DNA from: Myxococcota bacterium | GTDB taxonomy: Bacteria; Myxococcota_A; UBA9042; PHBI01; JBMYRH01 | Assembly (NCBI GenBank): GCA_049602155.1 | Contig: JBMYRH010000014.1 | Location: 99,860-163,859 of the forward strand | Length of the DNA stretch: 64,000 nt | Reading direction: 5' to 3' | Part shown: piece by piece, positions 748 to 28,031 of the stretch | Position numbering within the stretch: position 1 is the first letter of the stretch | How the letters are laid out: every line of letters begins with the position of its first letter | Position numbers and translations under genes: made by a program | Notes under the pieces: model-generated | Database searches by the model: none | The model's input: only the letters and a program-made list of their open reading frames with translations | Told to the model about the DNA's origin: nothing

Positions 748-884
748 GGCGTACCTCGCGGAGCCAACCTAACCGACGCTGGGGAGCGATGACTAGCCCT
801 CCCCGCGCGCGAAGAGATAGTGTTGGTATTGGACCCCACCCGCTGAGCTACTGTAGATTCGCTCGTCTCCAAGGGAAATGCAGC

Positions 885-8400: not shown

Positions 8401-8665
8401 TTTTGCGAAGGGGCTCGAGGGGATCGGTGAGATCGCCTTCGCCTCGAAGATGGAGTACACGCTCTCGCAGATCCCGGCGCCGACGACGATCATGGTCACG
8501 ATTGAGGGGCTCCCTTGCCCCGCGCTCACGGGGGGCATCTTCAACTGGGTTTACGACGCCGAGGACAACACGGTCACGCTCACCGAGGAGGGGATCTGCA
8601 CTGCCGGATCGGGTGACGAGGTCCTGATCGCCTATGACCTTCTCTGCTACGCTGAAGCAGACTGA
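5402..8665 (+). CDS. giant lipoprotein with choice-of-anchor-D/ASH-like Ig repeats and a C-terminal von Willebrand factor A domain
   Basis: The start ATG at 5402 overlaps the upstream stop by 4 nt (ATGA). The signal is MRNSALIIVLVAALSACSD. Several roughly 100-aa repeats have the form L-x-FG-x-V-x-G, then N-x-G, then L-x-V and so on, then FTP-x3-G, which is the choice-of-anchor-D pattern. The C-terminal part contains VLFVVDDSGSMSEE, a DxSxS MIDAS motif of vWA domains. Confidence 0.65.
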   Translation: MRNSALIIVLVAALSACSDAGGIGEGSEAIADTQTDPSGGDSSGEPGRSNGSGSGFQSADELGISVSPSALTFGAVALGASDSQSLEVLHTGSSGTLELIDVRYVTQEGSDISLGEVLTTRLDPGEGTEIEVRFTPTDAGQERGTVVIDTNAIDATGAALSVEVPVEAPALTSELIADAAIIGFGGVATGTEKSRTLTLLNVGTLDVTVEALTIDGTSSAEFVVPTAEVLPMTVGAGLNQAVEVVYTPTGFDTDTATLRIASSAADGLSELIVPLSGHEISAELKVTPTPLNFGLRGPEEAHVEVLTVTSGNPEVDLEISAVSVVETGPWSGTVTLEAWPEEGVVLTGGEPLEVSVTFTPSADMVSGPTPIAEIAFETNDPSDEGVQTVAVHGQRQGTGLEVFPPDIVYFGYVGIGGTVRREVTLYNAGNSPLTVDSVYVEGDYAIVEGDLWSPTADGPSPATLGPGELQVVTVSFTTAGPPLETTWGKLIIMSDDVAKPTWEVLLNAQKVEGGDCLLQFVPSALDFGMTAPWTAHTQQFTLVNIGTGPCAYHSAITDDCETTQGCEVSDDAEMAASSSAKYVVTAEPEVGAEIGPGEMIAIEVTFTAPDPSPVITPHPGMVRARVTSVSGQTGEDVVTVHPSSSSWLTLPNLLAEVGVGQLEVAPPVLDFQLVEIGCVSPPTVVTGTNVGMAHLEVASWWLEGCSDEVRVLEAPEPDTVHTLQIGQSVEWILDYAPVDETTDTCSLFIVSSDSQTPTEVPVTGWGAYPAELVDLFTDSEAQKVDVLFVVDDSGSMSEEQVNLSDSFEAFIYEAASWDSDYQIAVTTTTISLLELSGGALYGSPPWVTAANWEKFVNIVEVGTSGSGDEQGIWAAYIATSSPLIDPPEGTCEVDSDCGLHRVCRVGMCQGVNHGFFREDAALEIVFVSDEEDHSPEELEAYLNHFRGIKGYAHPELLHMHAIVGPAGGCSSSNGSAEAGHRYMNLADATGGAVYSICELDFAKGLEGIGEIAFASKMEYTLSQIPAPTTIMVTIEGLPCPALTGGIFNWVYDAEDNTVTLTEEGICTAGSGDEVLIAYDLLCYAEAD

Positions 8666-8769
8666 GCCGGTTTCCTGCTTGTACGTCGCCCCTTGCAAGG
8701 ACCTCCCGTCCTATCGCAGTCTGGAACTCATGATTCGCCCCCCGTTTACGCACCTCCTGCGAGCTTGAT

Positions 8770-11700
8770 ATGTACGGTTTTGCACTCCGAACGCTCTGCG
8801 CCCTCCTCCTCATTCTCGCCGGCTGTGGTGGTGATGATGAGGGGGCTACGTCTTCAAACGGAGCAACTCAGTGCTGCTCGGTCGATAGTGAGTGTCCTGA
8901 GGCCTTCGAGTGCTGCGGTGCGACCGAGGTTGAGCGGTCAGGGGTCTGTGTCCCGGCGGGCAACACCTGCAACTACAACAACACCTGCGCCCCCGACGAG
9001 CCTGCGCCCTCTCCAGACGTTGAGGAGGACACCACGGGGCCCTCTGACGTGGGCGACGAGGTAGAGGAGCCAGACACCGCAGAGCCAGATGTCGTGGCGC
9101 CCGAAGAGGTCGTCGTGCCTGAGGAGGTGGAGGAGGACGTCAGTGGCCCAGAAGAGGAGGTCGAGGAGGGCCCGGAATGCGTCGCGCCCGTCGACTGCGT
9201 CGACAAGGTCGAGGTCGCGCAGTGCCAAGAGGCCTCCTGTGAAGAGGGGCTGTGCGTCATCAAAGACATCGCTGAATGCTGCCAATCGGATGCTGACTGC
9301 GATGCGTTCCTTGAGGACACCTGTTGTACGACGAAGACCTGTGACGTGGCGGCGCAGAAGTGCGGCGAGACGACCCCGATTCCAGGCTGCTGTGAGGCCT
9401 CCTTCCAGTGCCCCTCAGATCAGGACCCGGCCACGATCGACATTTGCGCAGACGCATGCACCACCGACGGGTGCACGTACCTGCCCTTATTAAAGTGCGA
9501 GAATGAGATCACCTACATGACACAAGGCTTCAATGACGCTGAGATGGCGGGCCTCACCGTCAGCGACACCGACGTCTTTGATACGGTCTCTGTGTCGACT
9601 CAGAAGGGCAGCACGGTCAGCCCAGAGCGGAGCCTCTACTTTGGCTCTCCCGAGTGTCAGACCTACTACACGGGGCCCATGGAGAACTGTGAGCCGACCG
9701 ACTTCCTCGCCTCTGAGGCTACGCCGATCGGCTTGGAGGTGCGGACCGAGAACGTCACCCTGGCGTACGAAGAGGCCGCCTACTTGGGCTTCTGGGTCAG
9801 GATGTCCGCCGAGCCGGCGCTCTTAAGGCAGCCATGTCGCTCCCTGGCCACTTGCCGTCAGACCAGCTGTAACCCTGCGGATGACAGCTACCAAGCGTGC
9901 CTTGAGTTCTGCTCTGATAACACGAAGAGCCAGCTCTATGGCGGTGTCTCTTGCGACTGCCCGGGGGGCGATGAGGGGTTGGCTTGCGCGACCCAGTGTG
10001 TCGACGCAGCTTTCGGTGAGGTTGAGGCGTCCGCGGATGCACTCAGTGCCTGCGTCCTCGACGCTTGTGCGGCGGTTGAGGACGGTGCAGAGAGCGTCAT
10101 CTGTGAGCTTGAAGCCGTTGGCCCTGGCGGAGCGTGTGCGGCCGCCTCGGACAGCTGTGATGCGATCTACAGCTGGATGACGCCGACGGATTACCTCCGG
10201 GTCTCTATCGACACAGGCGAGGGGGAGCCTCAGACCATTTGGCGCAGCCCGGACAGCCTCGGGTTGGAGAATACGACCGAGGGAGAGTGGCGTTTTCAGG
10301 TCGTAGATCTCGAGCCCTTCAAGGGCAAGAACGTCAACTTCACGCTCTCGTTCATCGCGGATGGGCAGAAGAACTTCAACACCGGCGGTGGTGAGAACTA
10401 CTACGGCGCGTATGTCGATGATCTCATCGTGCGCACCGCGTGTGACACCTGCATCCCTGGCAGTGAGTGTGCCAAGGACTTCGATGGCTGCACCTCGGAT
10501 GTCTGCATGGGGATCCACGGTGACGCTGATGTAGGGCTCTGCACTTACCACGCCACGGTCCTGGGGAGCAGCTGTCAGCCTTGCGCCCAGCCCGGTGACT
10601 GCGGCAACGACCCCAACCTCGACTACACCTGTGACGAGGGGCTGTGTGGTTCGACGATCAAGAGCGAGTCCTGTGAGCCGTTCTCTAGTTTCCCTTACGA
10701 CACCCTGCCTGGTGGCGTAGCGATTCAGAGCTTTGAGGTCATCGGGGTCGACTTCTGGTCGGTAGAGGACCCTTACCCCGGCGACAATATCGCGTGGCAG
10801 GTGACGGACTCAGATGGCTACGTGGGTCCGAAGAGCCTCTACTTTGGGGACCCAGGGTCGGGGACGTATGAGGCGGATCCCGTGAACCCGGCGGCCGGGG
10901 CGATCTGGTCGCCGAGCTTCCAGATCTCGACCGAAGTGGGGATGCCGACGGTCCTGGCTTTTTGGCTCAACCTCTCGACCGAGTGGGATCTGCTCGGCGG
11001 AGACTTTGATCCGGAAGACCCTTATTTACAGCAGTACGACAAGCTCACCGTGTATCTCCACGAGGTCGGTGAGGATGAGCCGGTGGCGCTCTGGGAGTCA
11101 GGCACGACCCTCGGTAATTCGACCCTCGGGACCTGGCAACAGATCGGTATCGACGTCAGCGACTGGGCCAATAAGTTTGTACGCATCGGGTTTGAGTTCG
11201 ACAGCGGTGAAGGGGAGGGCAAGTCCTACGGCAATAACTTCGGGGGCGTCTACATCGATGAACTGACCGTGTCGGTGTACTGCGAGACCGAGTGTCTGAC
11301 CTCCGAGGTCTGTGATGACGGTGACACGTGCACGACGAATGCTTGCGTGCTTGGCGCCTGTGAGACGACGCAGCCTAATCCGGACTGCTGCCACGTTGAC
11401 GCTGACTGTAGTCACCCGAACGGCTGCGTGAATACGTCCTGCGTCGAGGGGACCTGTGAGTACGAATACAGCGCCCTCGCCAGCTGCTGTGACGATGGAC
11501 CCTGGCTCGATGGCTGGAGTGAAGGCTTCGAGGACGGCGCTCAGGGGTGGGCGACCATTGACTCGACGCCACCTGTGGTGTGGACGCTCTCTCAAGACGC
11601 TCAGCACTCGGGCTATTGGAGCTACAACTTTGCGGACCCCGAGACGGGCTTTTACAGCACCGCGGAGTTTGATGAGGCGCTCGGGGTAGAGATCGGTAAG

Positions 11701-12804
11701 CAGACCGGTGGACGCCTGATAAGCCCTGTCGTGTCCGTGCCGCCTTTCAACACAGGGAACCCCTTCGCTGAGTTCTGGTTAAACATGTCGACGGAGTGGG
11801 ACTTTGGAGACAAGGCGAACTTCGAGCCAGCCATCCCCGTCGATGAGCTTCGAGTGCTCGTCGCCACGGGCGGTAACGTGGTCGGCGCGGCAGAGCTGTG
11901 GACCAGTCATTACCTCTTCAACACGACCAAGGGAGAGTGGGCGCACACCTATGTCGACCTCGGAGATTACCGGGGTGAGGACGTGCAGCTCATCTTCGAG
12001 TTCATCTCCGGTGACGGGAATTTCAACGACTATGCTGGCGCCTTTGTTGATGATGTGAGCTTCGGGACGACCTGCAAGGCCGCTGCTGTGATTCAGTGCT
12101 TCGATGGCGGGGATTGCGCGAACAACGACGCGTGCACAGACGTGACCTGCACCGAGGACTTTACCTGCGTGTACCAGGCTGTGGACTCGCCACAGTGCTG
12201 TGAGCCGACGGATATGGAGGGCTTGGCGATGACCTTTGAGGCCGGCGCGTTGTCCTGGGAGTTCACGGCCTGTGACGCGGCAGAGACGGCGCCGGGTATC
12301 CCGGTCGATCCCAGCTCGACATGGAAGGTCGTCAACGAAGCTCAAGCGACCGGTATCGACGCCAAGTACGGCGAGGGCATGCTCTACTTTGGTAATGGAT
12401 TTGATTATGGCGGTGCGACGAGCACGGCCTCTTGTGGTCGCGCGGTCAGTGAGCCTGTGACGATCACGGCGTCGGACGCCCCTTGGATGCTGACTTACTG
12501 GATCTTCATGGACATCGAGCCGGCGACGGACTGTGACCAGGGCTTCGGTGCCCCATGGCTGGACGTCTTCACCCTTGAGATCCTCGACGAGACCAACGAT
12601 GACGCGACCCTCATCTTGGTCAAGGACTCCCTCTTGTGCAGCGACTACGGCGCTTGGGCACACCAGATGTGGGACTTGACCCCTTGGGTCGGCTCCACCA
12701 TCCGGTTCCGTGTCGGCTTTAACTCATGGGATCAAGAGGTCAACAGCGGCAAAGGCATCGCCCTCGATGAGTTTCGCTTCGAGAGGGGCTGCGCTGAGTT
12801 TTAG
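8770..12804 (+). CDS. giant Cys-rich lipoprotein with four MAM-like (meprin/A5/mu-type) domains
   Basis: The signal is MYGFALRTLCALLLILAGCGGDD, followed by Cys-rich and acidic N-terminal regions. Four modules begin with SLYFG, MLYFG or WSYNF. Each has an FWLN/YWIF-MS/D-x-EWD core and ends in G-x-Y/F-[IV]DD[LV/EL]-x-[VF]-x3-C, which is the MAM-domain end signature (G-IAIDD-x-F-C in animals). Confidence 0.65.
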   Translation: MYGFALRTLCALLLILAGCGGDDEGATSSNGATQCCSVDSECPEAFECCGATEVERSGVCVPAGNTCNYNNTCAPDEPAPSPDVEEDTTGPSDVGDEVEEPDTAEPDVVAPEEVVVPEEVEEDVSGPEEEVEEGPECVAPVDCVDKVEVAQCQEASCEEGLCVIKDIAECCQSDADCDAFLEDTCCTTKTCDVAAQKCGETTPIPGCCEASFQCPSDQDPATIDICADACTTDGCTYLPLLKCENEITYMTQGFNDAEMAGLTVSDTDVFDTVSVSTQKGSTVSPERSLYFGSPECQTYYTGPMENCEPTDFLASEATPIGLEVRTENVTLAYEEAAYLGFWVRMSAEPALLRQPCRSLATCRQTSCNPADDSYQACLEFCSDNTKSQLYGGVSCDCPGGDEGLACATQCVDAAFGEVEASADALSACVLDACAAVEDGAESVICELEAVGPGGACAAASDSCDAIYSWMTPTDYLRVSIDTGEGEPQTIWRSPDSLGLENTTEGEWRFQVVDLEPFKGKNVNFTLSFIADGQKNFNTGGGENYYGAYVDDLIVRTACDTCIPGSECAKDFDGCTSDVCMGIHGDADVGLCTYHATVLGSSCQPCAQPGDCGNDPNLDYTCDEGLCGSTIKSESCEPFSSFPYDTLPGGVAIQSFEVIGVDFWSVEDPYPGDNIAWQVTDSDGYVGPKSLYFGDPGSGTYEADPVNPAAGAIWSPSFQISTEVGMPTVLAFWLNLSTEWDLLGGDFDPEDPYLQQYDKLTVYLHEVGEDEPVALWESGTTLGNSTLGTWQQIGIDVSDWANKFVRIGFEFDSGEGEGKSYGNNFGGVYIDELTVSVYCETECLTSEVCDDGDTCTTNACVLGACETTQPNPDCCHVDADCSHPNGCVNTSCVEGTCEYEYSALASCCDDGPWLDGWSEGFEDGAQGWATIDSTPPVVWTLSQDAQHSGYWSYNFADPETGFYSTAEFDEALGVEIGKQTGGRLISPVVSVPPFNTGNPFAEFWLNMSTEWDFGDKANFEPAIPVDELRVLVATGGNVVGAAELWTSHYLFNTTKGEWAHTYVDLGDYRGEDVQLIFEFISGDGNFNDYAGAFVDDVSFGTTCKAAAVIQCFDGGDCANNDACTDVTCTEDFTCVYQAVDSPQCCEPTDMEGLAMTFEAGALSWEFTACDAAETAPGIPVDPSSTWKVVNEAQATGIDAKYGEGMLYFGNGFDYGGATSTASCGRAVSEPVTITASDAPWMLTYWIFMDIEPATDCDQGFGAPWLDVFTLEILDETNDDATLILVKDSLLCSDYGAWAHQMWDLTPWVGSTIRFRVGFNSWDQEVNSGKGIALDEFRFERGCAEF

Positions 12805-15900: not shown

Positions 15901-18204
15901 TCATCGCTCGCCAAGACGCTGTCGACGACGCGCCAAAGCCGCGATGAGCAAGAGCAAGAGGGTGAGCGAGGACGTGGGTGAACTGGGGGTTGATTGACAC
16001 CCAGTGGCTTCGTCTTCGACGGGGGGCGAGGTGGTACCCGGAAGCATCCCGCCTGTCCCCCTCGTGCTCGGTTCGGCCCGCTGCTGGTCGGTCGTAGCTG
16101 CCTCTCCGCCTGTGGTATCGGCTTCAGTGGTGGGCGGCCAGGTGTCTTCTGTGGTCTCTGACGCGTCATCTGTGCTGGTCTCGGTGACGTCTTCTTCGGT
16201 CACCGTGGAGTCCTCTGTGGTCTCTGACGCGTCATCTGTGCTGGCCTCTGACCCGTCATCGGCGCCGGTGGCGTCTCCTTCGGTCGCTGTGACGTCATCC
16301 GGTGTCGGGCCAGAGGCGTCATCGGCGGTGTGGTCCGAGGTGTCTTCGACGGTGTCCTCGCCGCTCGCGTCAGGGTCGGGGGAGGGGACGGTGAGGAGGT
16401 CGGCGCCGTCACAATCTTGGTCGACCCCGTCATCAGCGGTTTCGAGCGCGTTCGGGTGGACCGAGGATGCGCTGTCGTCGCAATCGCCACTGTCAGTCAC
16501 CCATCCCTCTGAGGAGAAGCAGTCTTCTTTGGACGTCAGGGGGTCTCCGTAGCCGTCTCCGTCGCTGTCGGCGTAAAACGTGCTGGTGTTTGTGGCGTCC
16601 TCGTCGATCTGGTCATCACAATCGTCGTCCGCCAGGTTGCAGGTCTCGTCGTGTGTAGGGTGGGTCTCGAAGTCGGTGTCGTTACAGTCCGTGCCGTCAG
16701 CGACGTAGGCCGGAGGCTGAGCGCAGCTGGCGAGGCTCTGGTTGGGGTTCCCGTAGCCATCTCCATCGAGGTCCAGGTACCAAGTCTGAGCGTCCACGGC
16801 GCCTTCGTCGGTCTCGCCGTCACAGTCGTTGTCGATGCTATCGCAGCTCTCACTCGCTGCAGGGTTAATGAGGCCATTGGAGTCATCACAGTCCGCCCCG
16901 CCATAGAGTTGACTCGCGTAGCCGTCGTCGTCTGCGTCGGTCGTGATGCACGCTCCGTCTTGGCAGATCTGGCCCTGACTGGCGCAGTCATCCTCGGTCA
17001 AGAAGCTCAGGTTGATCTCGCCTGAGTTGTCTGGTGCACAGGTCTTGGCGACCTCGCCCTCACACCACGATGCGTCACCGCCGAAGATGCAGCCGTACTG
17101 GATGCAACGGGCTCCCGTCCCATAGTCCTCACAGCTTGCGCCAAAAATAGAGGCGCAGTCGAAGGCTGTCGGCTGGCCAAGGCTACAGCGGCTCATCACC
17201 GTCTCATCGGTGCACGAGTCGGTGTTGGCGCCGTTGGGGCAAAACCCTGGGTAGGCCAAGACGCAATAGGCGGTCCCTTGGCCCTCCTCACAGACCGACC
17301 CAAAGACGGTGCAGTCCCCTGACTCGGCGGCGCCGCCTTGGCAGGTGATGAGCGTGTCTCCCTGACATCGTTTGCCGTTCATCAGATCGGCGCACAGCGG
17401 GTCGACTGGGCCGGGCTGATGGATGATGGAGAGGTGATTGTGGGTGGAGCGCTCGGCGGGCTCAGTTGGGGGGCGATCGGTGACATGGACCTGATTGATC
17501 ACCAAGTCCGAGCTGCCGCCGCCGTCGAGCATCAGGCCGTTGTAGCAGCCGTGATCGTAGACGAACTGGGCAAAGTCCCAGGGCGTCCAGCCCGTGCTTG
17601 AGCCGCAGGAGTTGTCACCTTCGGCGACAAAGAGGGTCATGATCTCGCCTGTGATGTCGAGGCACACCCCAGAGCGAGGGCGCGTGCAGGAGTCGTAGCT
17701 CGGGGCCTGCAAGACGCCGTCGATCACCAATCGCTGCCCGTTTCCTCCGATCACGTTCAGCTCGTTCCAAGTCCATTGCTCCAAGACATTTTGAGGGTTG
17801 ATGCGACACTGCTTGCTGGCGTCGCAGGCCAAGAAGCTCCAGTCACCGGCCGGGTTGTTATCGTCCCAGTCTTGCGAGCCCTCGAAGTACCACCCTCCGC
17901 CGACAGAGAGCCCCTGTGGGCCGTTATAGCTGGCGCTGTCCCAGTCACCGTTAATGGTCACTGTGGATTGCTTTAAGGCGGCCTCTTGGCTCGCTGTCAG
18001 CGGTCCCTCTTCATCGCGTGTGACCCGGATAGAGATCTCGGGGACCGTCAGGTCGACCCTCGCCCAGTGGACCTCCTCTTGAAGGTTACCCTCCCCAAAC
18101 GCACACCAATCCACCCCAGGGGCGATCTCCTCCCAGCACACCTCTTCGGCGGAAGCGGGCAGAGTGAGAAATAGTAAGAGCAGGGCGCAGCCTAGCGTTC
18201 TCAT
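15901..18204 (-). CDS. secreted multidomain protein with a phosphodiester-glycosidase (NAGPA-like) domain, Cys-rich EGF-like repeats, three MopE-like putative copper-binding repeats, an acidic Thr/Glu/Asp tract and a MYXO-CTERM tail
   Basis: The internal Met at 18204 gives MRTLGCALLLLFLTLPASAEE. The N-terminal domain contains VTINGDWD and then LMLDGGGSSDLVI, which matches the phosphodiester glycosidase fold. It has three repeats of the form D-x-DGDGYG, C-x-D, then CDG/DNDCDG-x-DE, the putative metal-binding MopE type. The C-terminus is GCQSTPSSPTSSLTLLLLLIAALARRRQR, a MYXO-CTERM-like tail. Confidence 0.6.
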   Translation of the reverse strand: MRTLGCALLLLFLTLPASAEEVCWEEIAPGVDWCAFGEGNLQEEVHWARVDLTVPEISIRVTRDEEGPLTASQEAALKQSTVTINGDWDSASYNGPQGLSVGGGWYFEGSQDWDDNNPAGDWSFLACDASKQCRINPQNVLEQWTWNELNVIGGNGQRLVIDGVLQAPSYDSCTRPRSGVCLDITGEIMTLFVAEGDNSCGSSTGWTPWDFAQFVYDHGCYNGLMLDGGGSSDLVINQVHVTDRPPTEPAERSTHNHLSIIHQPGPVDPLCADLMNGKRCQGDTLITCQGGAAESGDCTVFGSVCEEGQGTAYCVLAYPGFCPNGANTDSCTDETVMSRCSLGQPTAFDCASIFGASCEDYGTGARCIQYGCIFGGDASWCEGEVAKTCAPDNSGEINLSFLTEDDCASQGQICQDGACITTDADDDGYASQLYGGADCDDSNGLINPAASESCDSIDNDCDGETDEGAVDAQTWYLDLDGDGYGNPNQSLASCAQPPAYVADGTDCNDTDFETHPTHDETCNLADDDCDDQIDEDATNTSTFYADSDGDGYGDPLTSKEDCFSSEGWVTDSGDCDDSASSVHPNALETADDGVDQDCDGADLLTVPSPDPDASGEDTVEDTSDHTADDASGPTPDDVTATEGDATGADDGSEASTDDASETTEDSTVTEEDVTETSTDDASETTEDTWPPTTEADTTGGEAATTDQQRAEPSTRGTGGMLPGTTSPPVEDEATGCQSTPSSPTSSLTLLLLLIAALARRRQRLGER
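16148..16244. repeat. exact 31-bp direct repeat with 66-bp period inside the acidic tract of the 15901..18204 gene
   Basis: The unit tctgtggtctctgacgcgtcatctgtgctgg occurs at 16148..16178 and again at 16214..16244. It encodes duplicated ...TEDSTVTEEDV... segments. Confidence 0.5.
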
Positions 18205-18294
18205 GGTGGAGCTCCCGAGAGATGTGCAGATAGTGTTCCCTACTATGCATTCGTCTCTCGACCGTGGCCATCGGCGCACTCCATACTCCCGGCC

Positions 18295-20361: not shown

Positions 20362-21024
20362 CTACTCGCAAGCGACGATGAAGCCCCCGCCCTCGGCGAC
20401 CTCGCTCGGTGGTCCGCACCATGTCGCCATGGGGGCCTCACAGGTACCAACGACATTGCACGTCCAGTCGTCATAGGTGCAGTCCGCCCCGAGGTTCGGG
20501 CACGCGACGCTGCAGTAGCCCTCGGAGGCGCCGGGCTGGAGCACACAGAGGTCTGCAGGCGCGTCACAATCGAGGTCGACGGTGCACACTGCACCCCACG
20601 TCACGTCTGCCGTGTCGTCGCCCTGTGCGTCGTCGCCCTGTGCGTCGTCATCCTGTGCGTCGTCGCCCTGTGCGTCGTCATCCTGTGCGTCGTCGCCCTG
20701 TGCGTCGTCATCCTCTGCGTCTGGCCCCGCTGCGGTGTCTTCGCTTGGCGCTGCGTCGCTCTCCGATGAGGTATCCGCTGAGCCTGTGTTGGGTTCACTT
20801 CCACCGACCGCGTTGCCGCTCTCAGCGCCATCGTCTTGTGCGCTCGCGGCGGTCGATGGTGCTTCGCTCGCGCCTGAGCCGCCCATCGTCGGATCACTGG
20901 GGGCGTTAAGGCCGGTGTTGTCGCCTGACCCCGGGTGTGGGGTCGGGTTGGCGATACAGGCTGAGGTCATCATGGCGAATGAGGTGATCGCCAAGAGGAG
21001 GAGGAGTCGTTTCAGGGTGAGCAT
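20362..21024 (-). CDS. secreted protein with an (DDAQG)n acidic tandem repeat and a Cys-rich C-terminal domain
   Basis: The internal Met at 21024 gives MLTLKRLLLLLAITSFAMMTSAC. The repeat reads DDAQGDDAQDDDAQGDD... and is followed by a 10-Cys C-terminal domain. Confidence 0.5.
   Translation of the reverse strand: MLTLKRLLLLLAITSFAMMTSACIANPTPHPGSGDNTGLNAPSDPTMGGSGASEAPSTAASAQDDGAESGNAVGGSEPNTGSADTSSESDAAPSEDTAAGPDAEDDDAQGDDAQDDDAQGDDAQDDDAQGDDAQGDDTADVTWGAVCTVDLDCDAPADLCVLQPGASEGYCSVACPNLGADCTYDDWTCNVVGTCEAPMATWCGPPSEVAEGGGFIVACE
20614..20718. repeat. seven tandem copies of a 15-bp unit (gtcgtcgccctgtgc / gtcgtcatcctgtgc)
   Basis: The tandem array is visible directly in the sequence. It encodes the DDAQG/DDAQD repeats of the 20362..21024 gene. 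Confidence 0.75.
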
Positions 21025-21130
21025 ACCGTGACCTAGAGCAGGGGGCGGTGCGGAAGGTGTCGTCGGGGCCATCCCGAGCATACGGATCTCTGAGACTCCA
21101 GGCCAGCCATTGCGTCGATCGAATAGCGGG

Positions 21131-22534
21131 CTAAAGGTCCCGCTGCCACACAGTGGCTTGAAACGCGTCAAGTTGGTCGGAAGGTCGGCTGACCACCGCG
21201 CTGATCTCGGTGAACCCATCTAGGGCGCTTGGGGGGCCCTCATCCGCGCCAAAGGTGCAGACGGCGTATACGAGTCGGCCACCTGGTGCGACGTGCCTTG
21301 CACCGGTGGCGAGCAGCTTCTGTTGAAGTTCACCGAGACGGCCGACGTCATCCGGGCGCCTTCGCCAGGCGATCTCGGGGTGACGGCGCAGGGTCCCAAG
21401 CCCCGTGCAGGGGGCGTCCACCAGGACGCGCTCGAAGGACCCGAGGTTCAGGTCTGGAGCGGTGCCATCGGCGACTTGAGTGGTGATACGGTCGGAGAGG
21501 CCGAGGCTCTTGGCGAGCGCGTCGCAGCCCTCGAGTTTCCGCTCTTCGAGGTCGACGGCGAGCACCTCAGCGCCGCGATCGGCGAGCGCTGTGGCCTTGA
21601 TGCCGCGCCCCGCGCAGAGGTCGAGCACGCGCATGCCATCGCTCGCCTCGACGAGGTCGACTACGTGGAGGCTCGCGGGGTCCTGGGGGACGAAGAGCCC
21701 GGCGTGGAAAGCGTCGGTCGCGAAGGGGTCCCCGGGCCCGGTGATGATGCCGGTGCCGTGGGGACCGTCATCAAGGGTGAAGGGGGTGTCTTTCCAGGAC
21801 TCACGCAGCGCATCGAAGCCCCCGCGTGTCAGGGTTGGTCGCACCGTGTTCGGTGCGCGAGATTTGAGCGCCTCAGCTTCGGTTTCGACCGCGTGGTCGC
21901 CGTAGGCAACCCGTAATGCGCTGACGACCCAGGTCGGCAGGCTCCAGCGCATGGCGATGGCGGCGTTCGTTTGCCCCTCGGGCGCGGTGAAGCCGGCCTC
22001 CGTGACCCGCCGCAGGACGCCGTTGATCAGCCCGGTGACGCGGCCCATGCCTGCGGCCCGCGCGGCGTCTTGGGTCGCGCTGACCGCGATGGGGGCTGGA
22101 ATACGGTCGAGGTGCAGGATCTGGTATGCCCCGATGCGCAGAAATGCACGGGCCATGGGCTCGAGCTTTCCCAGGCCTTGTTTGACCCAAGGGCGCAGGG
22201 CGTGATCGAGCTGGCGTTGCCATCGTAACGAGCCATAGACCAATTCGGTCGCGAGTCCTCGGTCGCGTGGGTCGCTCAGGTTCCCGCGGTTCATCTCTCG
22301 GCTGAGGGTGTCGCCGGAGCGCGCCTCGCCTCGTTCGACAGCCGCGAGAACCATCGCGGCGACGCTTCGGGCGTTGGATTTGGTGCGTGGCCCGCGGGGA
22401 CGACGCCCTCGGGGATGAGACTGACGAGGGATAGTACGCTCCTTGGCTTCCTTGACCGCGCGGCCGTGGAGGACAAACCTTAGCCTTGCGTTCGACACGG
22501 CGACAAGGGCGAGAGACTGACGACATGGCGGCAT
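21131..22534 (-). CDS. rsmB: 16S rRNA (cytosine-C5) methyltransferase RsmB/Sun (start uncertain, probably downstream of 22534)
   Basis: It has an N-terminal NusB-like domain, an SAM motif DLCAGRGIKATALA, and the catalytic LVDAPCTGLGTLRRHPE motif. The 5' end as listed would overlap the divergent gene at 22486, so the true start is probably shorter. Confidence 0.8.
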   Translation of the reverse strand: MPPCRQSLALVAVSNARLRFVLHGRAVKEAKERTIPRQSHPRGRRPRGPRTKSNARSVAAMVLAAVERGEARSGDTLSREMNRGNLSDPRDRGLATELVYGSLRWQRQLDHALRPWVKQGLGKLEPMARAFLRIGAYQILHLDRIPAPIAVSATQDAARAAGMGRVTGLINGVLRRVTEAGFTAPEGQTNAAIAMRWSLPTWVVSALRVAYGDHAVETEAEALKSRAPNTVRPTLTRGGFDALRESWKDTPFTLDDGPHGTGIITGPGDPFATDAFHAGLFVPQDPASLHVVDLVEASDGMRVLDLCAGRGIKATALADRGAEVLAVDLEERKLEGCDALAKSLGLSDRITTQVADGTAPDLNLGSFERVLVDAPCTGLGTLRRHPEIAWRRRPDDVGRLGELQQKLLATGARHVAPGGRLVYAVCTFGADEGPPSALDGFTEISAVVSRPSDQLDAFQATVWQRDL

Positions 22535-23550
22535 CGGCGATAACCCACCTCAAGCGCGCGCTGCCATGGCTCTTCAGCGTCTTGATTGTGGGGTACCTCT
22601 TCTGGGCCGTCGACCTCGACGCTGTGATGGCGGCTGTGGAGGGGGCCGACATGGTCAGCTTGATGCTGATCATGGTCTTGAGCGCCCCGCTGATCTTGGC
22701 CGCGGATGCCTCGACCATTTGGCTGATGTTTCGGCGCTTACTCGCGCCCTACCCTTATCGAGAGATCGTCGCGATCAAGGGCGTCAGCTATTTCTTTAAC
22801 GCGATCACCTACAGCGCGGGGACGGGGGGCATCGCTTATCTGGTCCACCGGCGTTGGGGGGCGGGCTTCCTTCACTGTATCTCGTTGCTCTTGTGGATGA
22901 GCTTCGTCGACGTCATGACCCTCTTGCTGATCATTGGCTTGGGGCTGGTCTTAGCCGCTGACCTCTTGCCGGTGGGCTTGGCGACCCAGCTCCCTTATGT
23001 CCTCTTGGGTGGAGGGGTCATCTCTGTCGGCGCGATCATCTATTGGCGCTTGGGGATCGACTTTCTGATCTTGGGGCGGATGCGTAGCTGGCGGATCTTT
23101 CGCGCATTCGCTGACGCGACGATGGCTGACTACGCGGTCATGATCGCGAGCCGCGCTGCCTTTATCGGGGTCTACATCGTCCTCACCTGGCTGCTCTTGC
23201 CGACCTTTCAGATCGAGGTCCCGGTGCTCCTCCTCTTGATCTACCTGCCGATAGGCACCTTTGTGCAGATCATCCCGGCGTCCGTGTCAGGGCTCGGCGC
23301 GGTCCAAGTCGTCCTCATCGCGCTCTACGCGCCTCACGTGGCCGCCACGGTGGCTGACGGAGAGGCTCAGGTCCTCGCCTTTACGACCTTCATGGGTCCC
23401 GCGACGACGTTCGTTCGCGTCATGGTGGGCTACGCGTTTGTGCGCACCGTCATGAAGGGGCTCATGGGGGATGTGACCTTCGACGCCGCGGCGATCGCAG
23501 AGGCCCGAAGGGCCGATGAAGAGGCGGATTCCACACCGTCGGCGGATTGA
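22486..23550 (+). CDS. polytopic membrane protein, lysylphosphatidylglycerol-synthase-TM/UPF0104 flippase-like family (start possibly at 22525)
   Basis: It has eight or more hydrophobic helices. The conserved segment REIVAIKGVSYFFNAITYSAGTGGIAYLVHRRWG resembles the UPF0104 TM domain. Confidence 0.45.
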   Translation: MRSTRRQGRETDDMAASAITHLKRALPWLFSVLIVGYLFWAVDLDAVMAAVEGADMVSLMLIMVLSAPLILAADASTIWLMFRRLLAPYPYREIVAIKGVSYFFNAITYSAGTGGIAYLVHRRWGAGFLHCISLLLWMSFVDVMTLLLIIGLGLVLAADLLPVGLATQLPYVLLGGGVISVGAIIYWRLGIDFLILGRMRSWRIFRAFADATMADYAVMIASRAAFIGVYIVLTWLLLPTFQIEVPVLLLLIYLPIGTFVQIIPASVSGLGAVQVVLIALYAPHVAATVADGEAQVLAFTTFMGPATTFVRVMVGYAFVRTVMKGLMGDVTFDAAAIAEARRADEEADSTPSAD

Positions 23551-23602
23551 ACTGACAGGGTCGTGCTGTTACAAAGACAGCGACCTTGATGGAGAACACC
23601 AA

Positions 23603-24061
23603 ATGCCCGCAGATGAATTGACGCGTCGCCACTTCGCGAAGCTGACCTTGGCCGCTTTGGCGGGTGCCTCAATGGGCTGCAGCAAAGAGAGCAGCCCCTC
23701 TTCGACCCCGGCCAAATCTGCCGGGCTCCTCAAGGACGTGACCTCGGAGCACTTGCTGCTCCAAGAGCCTCATGTCTGCCGCGGCTTGAACGCTTGCAAA
23801 GGGCTCGCCCGTGGTGGGAAGAACGATTGCGCGGGTCAGGGCACGTGCGCGACCTCGAAGGCTCACGGCTGTGGCGGGCGAAACGCCTGCAAGGGCCAAG
23901 GGGGCTGCGGCGCGACGCCGGGTCAGAATGACTGCAAAGGCCAGGGCAAGTGTGGTGTCCCCATCACGATGAACCCTGCTTGGGACAAGGCACGAAAGGC
24001 GCTCGATGAGCTCGCGAAGAGCCATGGGTTCGAGCTCGGTGCAGCGCCCAAGCGAGGCTAA
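23603..24061 (+). CDS. bufferin-like (DUF2282-like) Cys-rich RiPP precursor with a twin-arginine signal and a possible lipobox
   Basis: A GGAG Shine-Dalgarno sits 8 nt upstream of the ATG at 23603. The N-terminus MPADELTRRHFAKLTLAALAGASMGC has a Tat motif (T-R-R-x-F-x-K) and a Cys after the h-region. The core HVCRGLNACKGLARGGKNDCAGQGTCATSKAHGCGGRNACKGQGGCGATPGQNDCKGQGKCG is a two-fold repeat of the DUF2282-like AKAGKNDCAG motif. The stop TAA at 24059-61 abuts the GTG start of the DUF692 gene. Confidence 0.6.
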   Translation: MPADELTRRHFAKLTLAALAGASMGCSKESSPSSTPAKSAGLLKDVTSEHLLLQEPHVCRGLNACKGLARGGKNDCAGQGTCATSKAHGCGGRNACKGQGGCGATPGQNDCKGQGKCGVPITMNPAWDKARKALDELAKSHGFELGAAPKRG

Positions 24062-24976
24062 GTGACCCGCGAGACGCCCTTGGGCTTGCCTCACCTCGGG
24101 TGGGGCATTGGGCTTCGCGCTGAGCACACCTCTGCGCTCTTGGGTGAGTGGCCGGAGGTCGATTGGTTCGAGGTCATCACGGAGAACGTGATGGACTCTG
24201 GCGGGCGCGCCAGGGCTGTCGTCGAGGCCGTCGCAGCGCGCTATCCGGTGGTCTTGCATGGCGTGTCGATGAACATCGGCTCTACGGATCCGCTCGACCG
24301 TCGCTACTTGGACAGGTTGGCGGCGCTGGCGGAGGCGCTTCGACCCGCTTGGGTCTCCGATCACCTCTGCTTTACGGGCCTAGGCGGCCATAACAGCCAT
24401 GATCTCTTGCCGCTGCCCTACACCGAGGACTCCCTCGGCCACGTCGTCGCCCGGGTCCGGGATGTACAATCACACTTGGGGCGCCCTCTGGTCCTTGAGA
24501 ACCCGTCTAGCTACATCACCTTTCGGGCTTCGACGATGAGCGAGTCACGCTTCTTAGCGCGCCTCGCAGAGGAGGCTGACTGCGGGCTTCTGGTCGATCT
24601 GAACAACGTCGCAGTCAGTTGCTTTAATCATGGTTGGGACCCGAACGCTTACTTGGCGGACCTCCCCTCGGACCGCGTCGTGCAGCTGCACCTCGCGGGT
24701 CACAGTGACCTGGGCTCTCACCGGGTTGACACGCACGATGGGCTGGTCTCTGAGGAGGTCTGGGACCTCTACCGACGCTTCTATGCCCGCATCGGTGGTG
24801 CGGCGACGCTCGTCGAGTGGGACGCCGCATTGCCCCCCCTCGGCGTGCTCATCGATGAGGCGGGGCGCGCTCGGGACATCGCTCAGGGGCGCCCTGTCTC
24901 ACCTCGCGCCGACACCTCGTCCAAGGTGGCCGTGCCGCACCCGCTTCACTCCCGTGTGCGGGAGGTCGGCCCATGA
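24062..24976 (+). CDS. DUF692 family protein (MbnB/TglH/BufB-like non-heme iron enzyme, TIM-barrel)
   Basis: LGWGIGLRAEH, then VDWFEVITEN, then VVLHGVSMNIGS, then WVSDHLCFTG are all DUF692 hallmarks. The GTG start lies immediately after the upstream stop. Confidence 0.85.
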   Translation: MTRETPLGLPHLGWGIGLRAEHTSALLGEWPEVDWFEVITENVMDSGGRARAVVEAVAARYPVVLHGVSMNIGSTDPLDRRYLDRLAALAEALRPAWVSDHLCFTGLGGHNSHDLLPLPYTEDSLGHVVARVRDVQSHLGRPLVLENPSSYITFRASTMSESRFLARLAEEADCGLLVDLNNVAVSCFNHGWDPNAYLADLPSDRVVQLHLAGHSDLGSHRVDTHDGLVSEEVWDLYRRFYARIGGAATLVEWDAALPPLGVLIDEAGRARDIAQGRPVSPRADTSSKVAVPHPLHSRVREVGP

Positions 24977-25776
24977 GCGGTCAGGCCCCTTGGCGGGGGG
25001 CGCAACGTTGGCTCTTTGAGGCCGTGACAGAGGGGGCGTCCGGGGCGTCGAGTCACCTCTTTGGGACGGAGACATTCTCCGCAGAGCGAGGGCTGGAGGT
25101 GTACGCCAACGCGTACCTCGTGAGGCTGGTTGAGTGTCTGTCGGAGAGCTTCCCTGCGGTCGCACGGACGCTCGGCGAGGAGGCCTTCGCTGAGTTGGCT
25201 GTCGCGTACCTGCGGGCGTGTCCGCCTTCGGGGCCTAACCTCGGGACCCTCGGGGCGGGCTTTACGGATCATCTGGAGCGCACGCGGCCCGAGGAGGTCG
25301 GGGCTGCGGGGCGCACTTTGGTGGCGTTGGCGCGCTACGAGTGGGCCCTTGAGGTGGCCTTTGATGGGTCCGGCGCCGAGGGCATGGACGGAGTGAGCCT
25401 TGGTGACCTGAAGGCGTTGTCTCCGGAGGCATGGCTTGGGACGCGGTTGGTCGCGAACCCTGCGCTCAAGCTGCTGCGCTTGGCGGGGGCGGTCGATGAG
25501 TATTGTCACGCGGTCCGTGGCCTGGAGGCGGAGGCGGGGCTCCCAGCGTTGCCGGCGGAGGTGCCGCGCTATGTCGCCTTGAGTCGGCGATCGTTTGTGG
25601 TGCGTCGCTTGGTGTGCGAGGCCGCAGAGTTTGAGATCTTGGGGCGACTCTCTCAAGGCGCCCCGATCGGAGAAGCGCTGATGGGCTCCGGGCTAGAGGT
25701 CACGCCAGACGACGTGCAGCGCTGGTTTGCGCGATGGATGACGGAAGGGCTCTTCGTCGCGCTCGAGCGGTGCTAG
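24973..25776 (+). CDS. DUF2063 family protein (MbnC/BufC-like partner of DUF692)
   Basis: The ATG overlaps the DUF692 stop (ATGA). The N-terminal LEVYANAYLVRLVECLSESFPAVARTLGEEAFAELAVAYLRACPPSGPNLGTLGAGFTDHLE matches the DUF2063 N-domain pattern. Confidence 0.8.
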   Translation: MSGQAPWRGAQRWLFEAVTEGASGASSHLFGTETFSAERGLEVYANAYLVRLVECLSESFPAVARTLGEEAFAELAVAYLRACPPSGPNLGTLGAGFTDHLERTRPEEVGAAGRTLVALARYEWALEVAFDGSGAEGMDGVSLGDLKALSPEAWLGTRLVANPALKLLRLAGAVDEYCHAVRGLEAEAGLPALPAEVPRYVALSRRSFVVRRLVCEAAEFEILGRLSQGAPIGEALMGSGLEVTPDDVQRWFARWMTEGLFVALERC

Positions 25777-25846
25777 ACTGCCGCCAATGAACGCGGCCAG
25801 CGCCGCCTCGCGTCGACGTGAGTCGCCGCGCACTTCGGAGGATCAC

Positions 25847-27142
25847 GTGGCTACAGACCCCAACACGCTCGACCTGCTCGACTACGTCCACGCCAGCCCA
25901 AGTCCGCGCCACTGTGTGGCTGAGACGGTGAGGCGGCTTGACGCTGCGGGCTTTGAGGAGATCGCCGAGGAGGACGCCTGGTCGTTGAACTTCGGTGACG
26001 CGCGGTACCTGATTCGAGGGGGCACCGTGCTCGCGTTTCGCGTCGGGTCCGTGCCGGCGGTCGAGGGTGGATTTCGCCTGATTGGCGCGCACACGGACTC
26101 GCCGAACCTCCGGATCAAGCCGGTCCCGGACGTCCGAGCGCAGGGCTATCAGCAGCTGGGTATTGAGACCTATGGGGGGCTGCTGGACTACACGTGGCTG
26201 GATCGCGATCTAGGGCTCGCTGGCGGTGTCGTGGTCCGAGATGGGGGAGCGCTGACGACGCGGCTTGTGCGCATTGATACACCGATCTTGCGCATCCCAT
26301 CCCTCGCGATTCACTTGAACAGAGAGGTCCGTGAGAAGGGCTTGAAGCTGAATGCTCAGACGCACCTTCAGCCGGTCCTTGGCCTGTCCAAGGGAGCGGA
26401 TGAGGTCTCGGCGCTGAAGGCGCTCTTGGCTGAGCAGCTGAGTGTCGAGGTTGATCAGATCGTGAGCTGGGATCTGTCGGTCATGGACGTGGTCGCCCCC
26501 ACGGTAGGTGGTCTAAACGGGGAGTTCATCTTCTGCCCAAGGATGGACAACCAAGCGATGTGCCACTCCGCGCTCATCGCGCTGCTCGATGCATCACAGG
26601 CGAAGGCGACTCAGGTCATCTGCCTCTATGACCACGAGGAGGTCGGGAGCGGCTCTGCGGCCGGCGCCGCGGGCAACTCGGTGGAGGCGCTGTTAAGGCG
26701 TATTACCGAGACCGAGGGCCCTGGCGCGGTGCCAGGTGGGCTGCCTCGCGCCATCGCGCGCTCGCTTCAAGTCTCGGCGGACATGGCGCACGCCGTGCAC
26801 CCGAACTACGCAGACCGGCACGAGCCCAAACATATGCCGCACCTCAACGCGGGGCCTGTGATCAAGGTGAACACGCAGCAGCGCTATGCGACTGATGCCG
26901 AGACAGCGGGCCTCTTTGAGGCGCTCTGCGATGAGGCAGGAGTGCCGTGTCAGACCTTCGTGAACCGGACCGATCTACGCTGTGGCTCCACGATTGGGCC
27001 GATCTCAGCGGCGCGACTTGGGGTCCGGACGGTCGACGTCGGGAACCCGATGCTCTCGATGCACGCGATTCGGGAGATGGGGGGCTCGGAAGATCCGCCG
27101 CATATGACCGCGGTCATGACCCGCTTCTTGATGCACGCTTAA
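25847..27142 (+). CDS. M18-family aminopeptidase (aspartyl aminopeptidase-like)
   Basis: RLIGAHTDSPNLRIKPVP, then ICLYDHEEVGS, then a MHAIRE end are M18 signatures. The GTG at 25847 has a GGAGGA Shine-Dalgarno 6 nt upstream. Confidence 0.8.
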   Translation: MATDPNTLDLLDYVHASPSPRHCVAETVRRLDAAGFEEIAEEDAWSLNFGDARYLIRGGTVLAFRVGSVPAVEGGFRLIGAHTDSPNLRIKPVPDVRAQGYQQLGIETYGGLLDYTWLDRDLGLAGGVVVRDGGALTTRLVRIDTPILRIPSLAIHLNREVREKGLKLNAQTHLQPVLGLSKGADEVSALKALLAEQLSVEVDQIVSWDLSVMDVVAPTVGGLNGEFIFCPRMDNQAMCHSALIALLDASQAKATQVICLYDHEEVGSGSAAGAAGNSVEALLRRITETEGPGAVPGGLPRAIARSLQVSADMAHAVHPNYADRHEPKHMPHLNAGPVIKVNTQQRYATDAETAGLFEALCDEAGVPCQTFVNRTDLRCGSTIGPISAARLGVRTVDVGNPMLSMHAIREMGGSEDPPHMTAVMTRFLMHA

Positions 27143-27152
27143 GACGCAGCGA

Positions 27153-28031
27153 TTAGCCCTGATAGACGAGGAAGATGATCGTGATGCCCCAGGCGGCGAG
27201 GTTCGCCAAAAAGGGCACATCCTTGAGCATCAGGTCGGTGGGACTGCGCCCTTGCTCGGCGCGCCCGGTCAGGCTGTTAAAGCGCCATAACCCGACAAGG
27301 ACAAAGGGGATCGTCCACACGAGGTCTCTCGGGTTGAACATCGCCGCGGTCTCACCGAGGAGGGTGTAGGCGGCGTAAGCGCCCGTGGTCGCGAAGGCCA
27401 GCACCACCATCGTGAGCCGCACCATCTTCACGTCGTAGCGCGCGAGGACTTTGCGGGTCTTGCCTCCCTTCTCATGGACAGCCAAGAGCTCATGCTTACG
27501 TTTGCCGAGGCCCAGGTACATGGCGAGTAGGAAGGTGCAGACCCCGAGCCACACTGAGAGCGGGACGTCGATCGCGTAGGCGCCGCCCAAGAGGCGGAGG
27601 ATGAAGCCGCTCGCGATGATGAGCACGTCGACGAAGGGGACGTGCTTGAGGGCGAACGAGTAGCCGACGTTGAGCGTGAAGTAGGCCATGCCGATGGCGG
27701 CGAACTCGATCGACAGGGCGAAGGCGCCGCTGACAGTCGCGAACAAGAGCCCCGCCAAGGCCATCTTCGCGACCTTGAGTGGCAGGCGCCCTGCAGCGAT
27801 GGGGCGGTTGCACTTCGTGGGGTGGGCGCGGTCGCTCTCGACGTCGACGATGTCGTTGAGGAGGTAGACGCAGCCGGAGAGGAAGGAGAAGAGGAAGAAT
27901 GCCAGCACGGCGCTAAGCAGCAGGGAGGGGTCATCTGCGCGCTTAGCGAAGACCAACGGCGCCATGACAAAGAGGTTCTTCACCCACTGATGGGGCCGCA
28001 TCGTTCGCAGGATCTCGCCGGCGATGTTCAC
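27153..28031 (-). CDS. UbiA-family prenyltransferase (decaprenyl-phosphate phosphoribosyltransferase-like)
   Basis: An N-terminal TMRPHQWVKNLFVMAPLVFA, an NDxxDxxxD motif (LLNDIVDVESDRAH), and eight or more TM helices. Confidence 0.75.
   Translation of the reverse strand: MNIAGEILRTMRPHQWVKNLFVMAPLVFAKRADDPSLLLSAVLAFFLFSFLSGCVYLLNDIVDVESDRAHPTKCNRPIAAGRLPLKVAKMALAGLLFATVSGAFALSIEFAAIGMAYFTLNVGYSFALKHVPFVDVLIIASGFILRLLGGAYAIDVPLSVWLGVCTFLLAMYLGLGKRKHELLAVHEKGGKTRKVLARYDVKMVRLTMVVLAFATTGAYAAYTLLGETAAMFNPRDLVWTIPFVLVGLWRFNSLTGRAEQGRSPTDLMLKDVPFLANLAAWGITIIFLVYQG

Follow-up and report, generated by a model that had tools for sequence, protein, structure and literature searches.

The subject of this report is a three-gene operon found in a stretch of 64,000 nucleotides from a Myxococcota bacterium (contig JBMYRH010000014.1, positions 99,860 to 163,859), hereafter called the window, and in particular its first gene, which encodes a small cysteine-rich protein. 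This protein is a precursor of the bufferin kind, a class of peptides made by the ribosome and modified after translation (RiPPs), and the two genes that follow encode an MNIO maturase of the BufB type and its DUF2063 partner, BufC. The precursor probably carries a signal for the twin-arginine translocation (Tat) pathway, where the described bufferins use the Sec pathway, and it combines this signal with nine cysteines in a duplicated core and with a conserved C-terminal tail. The three open reading frames (ORFs) are co-directional, lie within positions 23603-25776 on the + strand of the window, in source DNA with a G+C content of 63%, and comprise the following features.

23591..23595, + strand: Shine-Dalgarno-like GGAGA, 7 nt 5' of the precursor ATG, read from the sequence
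23603..24061 including the stop, + strand: bufA-like precursor gene, 152 aa, with a putative Tat-type lipoprotein signal, a linker, a nine-cysteine core and a predicted C-terminal helix
23621..23641, + strand: twin-arginine motif T7-R8-R9-H10-F11-A12-K13 (consensus S/T-R-R-x-F-L-K)
23642..23680, + strand: h-region L14-G25 and lipobox-like S23-M24-G25-C26, with a predicted signal peptidase II site before C26
23681..23767, + strand: variable Ser/Pro/Ala-rich linker, residues 27-55, ending in a conserved LLLxE
23768..23956, + strand: Cys-rich core, residues 56-118 (PHVC...KCG), with nine invariant Cys columns, aligning to BufA2 (model NF050166)
23771..23848, + strand: internal repeat unit 1, residues 57-82, HVCRGLNACKGLARGGKNDCAGQGTC, from self-alignment
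23864..23953, + strand: internal repeat unit 2, residues 88-117, HGCGGRNACKGQGGCGATPGQNDCKGQGKC, from self-alignment
23957..24058, + strand: C-terminal tail, conserved, covering residues 119-152; an amphipathic helix is predicted at 124-140
24062..24976, + strand: bufB, MNIO (DUF692) maturase (PF05114, NF050167), no signal peptide
24973..25776, + strand: bufC, DUF2063/HvfC_N partner (PF09836), with an ATGA overlap onto bufB

The genes are tightly coupled, as a first-pass annotation made from the sequence had claimed: the TAA stop of the precursor gene (24059-24061) abuts GTG 24062, the start of the 304-aa ORF 2, and ORF 2 and ORF 3 (ATG 24973, 267 aa) overlap by ATGA. For the precursor, ATG 23603 and not the upstream ATG 23516 was taken as the start because of the GGAGA placed 7 nt upstream, a choice with which the homologues agree, as they also start 5-8 residues ahead of the RR motif. 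The start of bufB is ambiguous (24062-24080), GTG 24062 being defined only mechanically, and in close relatives (L087, L090) the called MNIO start lies 12-14 nt past the precursor stop and gives a protein of 300-301 aa. A promoter scan of 22300-27400 found none, terminators in this region were no more frequent than expected by chance, and tRNA and Rfam scans of the 64-kb window gave no matches. Each of A, B and C occurs only once in the window, and a DoxX gene is absent from it, the latter as first annotated.

ORF 2 is a full-length MNIO (PF05114 MbnB_TglH_ChrH, E 4e-102), and it passes the NCBIfam equivalog NF050167 MNIO_BufB with 342.4 bits against a cut-off of 310. It stays below the rival equivalogs HvfB (NF003818, 232 against 360) and MbnB (TIGR04159, 54 against 325), and it also fails those of ApyH and ChrH. 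The nearest solved structures are 3BWW, a DUF692 protein (E 2e-44), TglH 8HCI, and MbnB. ORF 3 matches PF09836 DUF2063 with 67.9 bits (cut-off 27.2, E 9e-19), reaches 33 of the 142 bits set for the HvfC equivalog NF050145, and has no match in the PDB. With both proteins above their cut-offs and the order A-B-C tightly kept, the earlier identification of gene 2 as a DUF692 (BufB-like) protein, of gene 3 as a DUF2063 (BufC-like) protein, and of the whole as a bufABC-type MNIO RiPP operon holds, and its alternative label, methanobactin-like, has to be dropped on the MbnB score. Neither BufB nor BufC has a signal peptide, and modification of the precursor must therefore come before its export.

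The precursor contains ten cysteines, one (C26) in the signal and nine in the core (C59, C65, C76, C82, C90, C96, C102, C111 and C117), the latter being the presumed targets of the MNIO; the number nine lies outside the six or twelve cysteines by which Buf2 precursors are recognized. The core is an internal tandem duplication, as first proposed, with residues 57-82 aligning to residues 88-117 at a score of 86 (z = 8.2) that none of 2000 shuffles matched. In an alignment of 45 clade sequences (A1, 47-90% identity) there are 32 invariant columns, which include R8, R9 and F11 of the signal, the nine core cysteines, and the tail residues W127, R131, G146, A148 and P149. The linker in this alignment is weakly conserved and variable in length, and AlphaFold2 (AF2) gives it a predicted local distance difference test value (pLDDT) below 50, and the C-terminal helix is predicted with confidence (pLDDT 85-93). 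The tail is missing from canonical BufA2 and from the Sec-type relatives described below. A search of the PDB with the clade profile returned chance matches only (the tail of the HLTF HIRAN domain at E 0.61, and EGFR), and no solved homologue.

Regarding the kinship of the precursor, the repeats had been described at first as being of the DUF2282 type, and this fails: neither the window precursor nor any of the 45 aligned members matches Pfam DUF2282 at E up to 1, and hhalign against a genuine DUF2282 BufA1, from the Asticcacaulis plasmid pASTEX01, gives a probability of 1.2%. The relationship is instead to BufA2. The clade profile aligns with the BufA2 of Asticcacaulis at 95% probability (E 4e-8), with the shared pattern HVC-RGLNAC-KG...C-AT..H.C-.G.N.C-KGQG, and all 45 members give weak matches to the NF050166 BufA2 model (best E 2e-8), for which the canonical BufA2 proteins encoded beside related MNIO genes reach 100 bits (Asticcacaulis) and 88 bits (Thiothrix). 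By sequence comparison, the precursor is a remote relative of BufA2. One member of the clade, P0067 from Planctomicrobium piriforme (WP_092048714.1), is listed as "Buf2 (yellow)" in Table S3, sheet Fig1C, of Antoine et al. 2025 (PMC12452194), and the field therefore already counts this clade as Buf2, though the curated BufA2 model falls short of it.

The clade is large. A search of 5.8 billion protein clusters returned at least 967 clusters (at 90% identity) of precursor homologues; among the matches listed, the closest clusters are 90% identical to the query, and one at 74% comes from a metagenome-assembled genome (MAG) of the Myxococcota. The exact window precursor is not on record in the assembly index, where the nearest cluster is 90% identical. 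A scan of one genome per species gave at least 472 loci; since the best identity among them is 53%, the lineage to which the window belongs is missing from that set of representatives. These loci are mostly from Planctomycetota (Schlesneria, Planctomicrobium, Pirellulales, Tautonia, Singulisphaera) and Verrucomicrobiota; a few carry the label Deltaproteobacteria, and the clade also includes some Myxococcota. A query restricted to core and tail found 318 clusters at E ≤ 1e-3 among 1.84 billion representatives at 50% identity. Clade members are named "hypothetical protein" and have no Pfam or NCBIfam model of their own. Some distant relatives of the core (P0211, P0243, P0248, P0260) are found as C-terminal domains of 470-714-aa proteins that have an N-terminal Ferritin-like domain (PF12902) and no signal peptide.

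The N-terminus of the precursor reads MPADEL-TRRHFAK-LTLAALAGASMG-C. The RR pair is present in the n-region of all 121 clade proteins examined and the RRxF motif recurs in the locus-derived copies, one of which (L078) is not cleanly delimited; R8, R9 and F11 are invariant across three phyla, whereas the rest of the n-region and the linker vary freely. The pair is preceded (position -1) by N, T, S or D, and 101 of the 121 proteins have K or R at position +5. In clade members the motif is followed by no fewer than 12-14 residues without charge (14 in the window protein, L14-S27). Weak hydrophobicity of the h-region is well known as a mark of Tat as opposed to Sec signals. When the most hydrophobic 12 residues are scored on the Kyte-Doolittle scale, the RR clade averages 1.75 ± 0.19, with 1.52 for the window protein (L14-G25), against 2.27 ± 0.23 for the Sec-type relatives together with canonical BufA1 and BufA2 (Mann-Whitney p = 5e-6). 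These Sec-type relatives, distant homologues retrieved with the core alone, have Sec or Sec-lipoprotein signals lacking the RR pair, and they also lack the C-terminal tail. Among the 45 aligned members, the TAT-signal models TIGR01409, Rieske TAT signal and formate_TAT match 14 (E < 1), 9 and 9, respectively; the Planctomicrobium homologue P0067 passes TIGR01409 with 20.7 bits, and the N-termini of two canonical BufA2 proteins give no match to this model.

From these comparisons, the precursor, and with it the clade, is probably targeted to Tat, and the motif that the first-pass annotation had read in one protein gains in weight from its invariance throughout the clade and from the lower hydrophobicity of the h-region. 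Its statement that described bufferins use Sec signals is also in line with the literature, which reports Sec export only and presents bufferins as the paradigm of Sec-exported RiPPs, arguing that the small thiooxazoles can pass SecY (PMC11626156). The papers found on bufferins and related MNIO products do not mention Tat or twin-arginine signals, and a search pairing these terms with MNIO, DUF692 or RiPP gave nothing relevant; both results are provisional, as most of the subscription-journal literature was outside the search. A Tat signal on this class of peptides appears to be new.

In the window protein the h-region is followed by a lipobox-like cysteine, as had been suggested, and the pattern [AST][MILV]GC is kept in all of the 19 closest homologues. 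Across the clade the lipobox cysteine is present in 60 of 121 members; the remaining proteins have AxA-type cleavage sites and nine cysteines in total, and both forms are found with and without adjacent maturase genes. The proposal that lipid anchoring would be a new mode of delivery for such peptides does not stand: about 16% of Buf2 precursors are already predicted to be lipoproteins (PMC12452194), and a lipidated MNIO peptide of the ChrH family has been shown experimentally (PMC13056109). Two loci (L027 1913-3089, L076 8602-9673) have two tandem precursors, one of the lipobox and one of the AxA type, before a single MNIO gene.

The genomic context was assessed for the 82 precursor copies with enough downstream sequence to judge. 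An MNIO gene lies directly 3' of the precursor in 43 of these, across three phyla (for example L002, L091 and L092), and it is usually followed by a DUF2063 gene, the exceptions being a few contigs that end early or gave no match to C. At loci other than the window, DoxX is fused to or adjoins members of the clade. In the fusions, a DoxX (BufD-type) membrane domain stands at the N-terminus of a second precursor copy (P0135, P0153, P0154, P0159, P0165), and in some Planctomycetaceae this gives the order A - MNIO - DoxX::A' - DUF2063 (L033 7917-12779, L069 7883-11354, L077 7847-11346). In these fusions an RR(E)F motif persists inside the protein, ahead of the last hydrophobic segment (NRREFAKL in P0154, GRREFAKL in P0159), an arrangement reminiscent of the actinobacterial Rieske proteins that are targeted by both Sec and Tat. 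The fusion P0154 is also found without an adjacent MNIO gene (L093).

The immediate neighbours of the operon in the window are a gene for a 354-aa LPG_synthase_TM/flippase-like protein (22486-23550, + strand), which ends 52 nt 5' of the precursor gene, and downstream, after a gap of 10 nt, a gene for an M18 aminopeptidase. These genes, along with UbiA and RsmB, were considered as parts of the system and rejected, being syntenic only in relatives at 78-80% identity and missing from every distant locus; the window neighbours are therefore taken as lineage context and not as components of the system. Further away, 5 kb upstream of the operon, a 792-aa protein (15901-18279, - strand) has repeats of Cu-binding_MopE, a putative metal-binding motif (PF11617, E 5e-23), and a phosphodiester glycosidase domain of the NAGPA type. 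A protein of 285 aa (20362-21219, - strand) without a Pfam match begins like a lipoprotein (...FAMMTSAC), contains a run of acidic DDAQG/DDAQD repeats and ends in a Cys-rich segment. Moreover, positions 789-12804 (+ strand) hold a series of four long ORFs (350, 1187, 1087 and 1344 aa), of which two lack any Pfam match, one has HYDIN/ASH-type Ig-like domains and one an InhA-like MAM domain.

We hold it somewhat probable that the locus is a Buf2-type bufferin operon whose precursor is modified in the cytoplasm, exported by Tat, lipidated, and used as a metal buffer, and for the steps beyond gene identity we infer the following route. The 152-aa precursor would be made in the cytoplasm, where BufB and BufC may oxidise several of its nine core cysteines to 5-thiooxazoles, the chemistry shown for Buf1 and Buf2 of Caulobacter. 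In Buf2, the four central cysteines each lose 4 Da, and CysI and CysVI remain unmodified and are likely joined in a disulfide; thiooxazoles, copper binding and protection from copper have been shown for the Caulobacter proteins Buf1/Buf2 only, and the same work shows their induction by copper (PMC11626156). The modified and possibly folded domain would then be sent to the Tat translocase, and not to Sec, by TRRHFAK and the weakly hydrophobic h-region, after which Lgt, LspA and Lnt may process the lipobox-like SMG|C26. The predicted product is a lipid-anchored envelope protein in which a flexible linker is followed by a metal-binding module of two tandem thiooxazole/Cys repeats and by the C-terminal helix, and whose task there would be to buffer copper or a different thiophilic metal.

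Several observations weigh against this account. The window precursor reaches 18.5 bits on the NF050166 Cu_RiPP_BufA2 model (cut-off 60), and its N-terminus reaches 14.9 bits (E 0.027) on TIGR01409 TAT_signal_seq (cut-off 16.7). The earlier expectation of a match to DUF2282 or bufferin models was thus disappointed at the level of curated thresholds and held up in the 95% hhalign alignment and in the weak NF050166 matches of all 45 members; similarly, the expected Tat prediction came out below threshold for the window protein itself, with the invariant RRxF and the homologue P0067 speaking for it. As both scores fall below their cut-offs, the reading is rescued by comparative evidence only. The AF2 models of the core have pLDDT values below 50 both for the full precursor (45 sequences) and for its mature part (121 sequences), and there is consequently no structural support for a domain folded before export. 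The S-M-G-C26 sequence has an atypical Ser at -3, and it fits only a relaxed PROSITE-style pattern and not [LVI][ASTVI][GAS]C. Adjoining the operon there is no regulator responsive to copper or other metals, no sigma/anti-sigma pair and no DoxX gene, and a tblastn search with TatA and TatC of E. coli found no tat genes in the window, a result that is uninformative for a piece of 64 kb. Finally, 39 of the 82 assessable copies stand alone, as neither an MNIO nor a DUF2063 gene is found within 10 kb of them, and therefore modification may be optional in this family.

The low TAT score (14.9 against 16.7) and the lack of a predicted folded core that would demand Tat both suit the view that this is an ordinary Sec-exported Buf2 protein, in which RRxF would serve as a leader element for the DUF2063/MNIO complex or simply as a positively charged n-region. 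Published work on bufferins, moreover, shows Sec-type export and calls the whole class Sec-dependent, and thiooxazoles are small enough to be compatible with SecY (PMC11626156). However, this view is at odds with the 39 stand-alone copies, in which RRxF is equally invariant without an adjacent maturase, and with the finding that the signal peptide of BufA1 is dispensable for modification (PMC11626156). It is also hard to reconcile with relatives of the same superfamily that do have Sec-type signals, since these lack the RR pair and have significantly more hydrophobic h-regions, and with the several clade members that match or pass three independent TAT-signal models. On this evidence, we consider Sec export unlikely.

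The stand-alone copies also bear on another explanation, in which the precursor is primarily a Tat-exported Cys-rich metalloprotein that takes up a metal or metal cluster in the cytoplasm, on unmodified cysteines, comparable to Csp1 or to HiPIPs, and the MNIO pair is optional. Such copies (among them L001 6001-6489 and L003 6001-6444) keep the RR motif, all nine cysteines and the C-terminal tail; the one in Schlesneria paludicola is flanked by an aconitase gene on one side and an FHA-domain gene on the other, and one in a verrucomicrobial MAG adjoins thioredoxin-family/DsbH-like genes. Use of Tat is typical of proteins that are loaded with cofactors in the cytoplasm, and the fusions of relatives to Ferritin-like domains point the same way. 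Against this, translation of the window gene is coupled to that of bufB and bufC, and the MAG CAZCUL01 has both an operonic (L023) and a stand-alone (L073) copy, which makes modification in trans plausible. The Cys spacing also fits BufA2, where the four central cysteines become thiooxazoles, and no Fe-S or Csp motif, and no homologue has a solved structure. The metalloprotein explanation is, in our judgement, decidedly unlikely. A methanobactin- or oxazolin-type system, producing a small secreted chalkophore with oxazolone/thioamide groups, would account for the enzyme being an MNIO, which shares the fold family of MbnB and HvfB, but its scores for both equivalogs lie below the cut-offs given above, and membership of either group was rejected on these curated thresholds. 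In addition, there is no MbnC, no short MbnA-like peptide and no EGKCG repeat, nothing nearby encodes a TonB-dependent receptor, MATE exporter or aminotransferase, and the product would be a protein of ~126 aa and not a short peptide, so that this alternative is almost certainly wrong.

Returning to a Buf2-type operon with Tat export, its interest lies in the fact that a subclade with an invariant RR runs against the published description of these peptides as Sec-only. Some MNIO products may leave the cytoplasm only after modification and folding, perhaps loaded with metal, in which case RiPP maturation would come under the quality control of Tat, and the three-gene locus offers a simple and testable system for Tat transport of a heterocyclised protein. 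It also raises the question of why roughly half of the clade proteins would be lipid-anchored. A bolder version, which we think quite unlikely, is that the whole clade is exported by Tat as a finished, folded and possibly metal-loaded product, with DUF2063 or the C-terminal helix perhaps proofreading the Tat signal until all cysteines are modified. If this were true, export itself would remove copper from the cytoplasm, and this would be the first RiPP pathway in nature to depend on Tat.

Among known systems, the closest is Buf2, represented by BufA2B2C2 of Caulobacter vibrioides (CCNA_02999-03001; NF050166, NF050167). Both have the order precursor-MNIO-DUF2063 without DoxX, the MNIO of the window passes the BufB cut-off, and the precursors, in both cases small proteins bearing signal peptides and not short peptides, share the pattern H-x-C-x-G-[IL]-N-x-C-K-G ... 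C-A-T ... H-x-C-x-G-x-N-x-C-K-G-x-G. They differ in that Caulobacter Buf2 has a Sec signal and the window precursor a putative twin-arginine signal with a lipobox-like cysteine; in the 6 or 12 cysteines there against nine invariant core cysteines from a tandem duplication here; and in the conserved C-terminal tail of ~35 aa with its helix, which is added here. Moreover, no SigF/NrsF-type regulator adjoins the window operon, and the clade is centred on Planctomycetota and Verrucomicrobiota. The logic of enzyme and partner is also like that of Buf1 (DUF2282 BufA1 with BufB1C1D1), and a G-x-N-D-C motif is present in both precursors, but here there is neither a DUF2282 match nor a DoxX gene, and BufA1 has four cysteines against nine.

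The Tat signal on a Cys-rich or copper-related envelope protein has parallels in Csp1, CueO and NosZ, which are Tat-exported copper proteins, and the combination of Tat with a lipobox occurs in the Tat lipoproteins of Streptomyces and haloarchaea. However, these proteins have no kinship to the precursor in sequence or fold, and they are not RiPP-type substrates. The lipidated MNIO RiPPs, such as the DybA/chryseobasin-like peptides and the predicted lipo-bufferins and lipo-oxazolins (PMC13056109), resemble the proposed route in that modification by a cytoplasmic MNIO is followed by the lipoprotein pathway through a lipobox cysteine; they differ in using Sec/SPII (signal peptidase II) signals and ChrH-type chemistry, where the window has a putative Tat/SPII-type signal and a BufB-type enzyme. 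Taken together, the Buf2-type cluster, the clade as catalogued, and lipid anchoring are already known. A large group of Buf2-like precursors is set apart by three traits in combination, the Tat signal, the duplicated nine-cysteine core and the added C-terminal helix, and what appears to be new is this large subclade, spanning several phyla, with a twin-arginine signal that is invariant in it.

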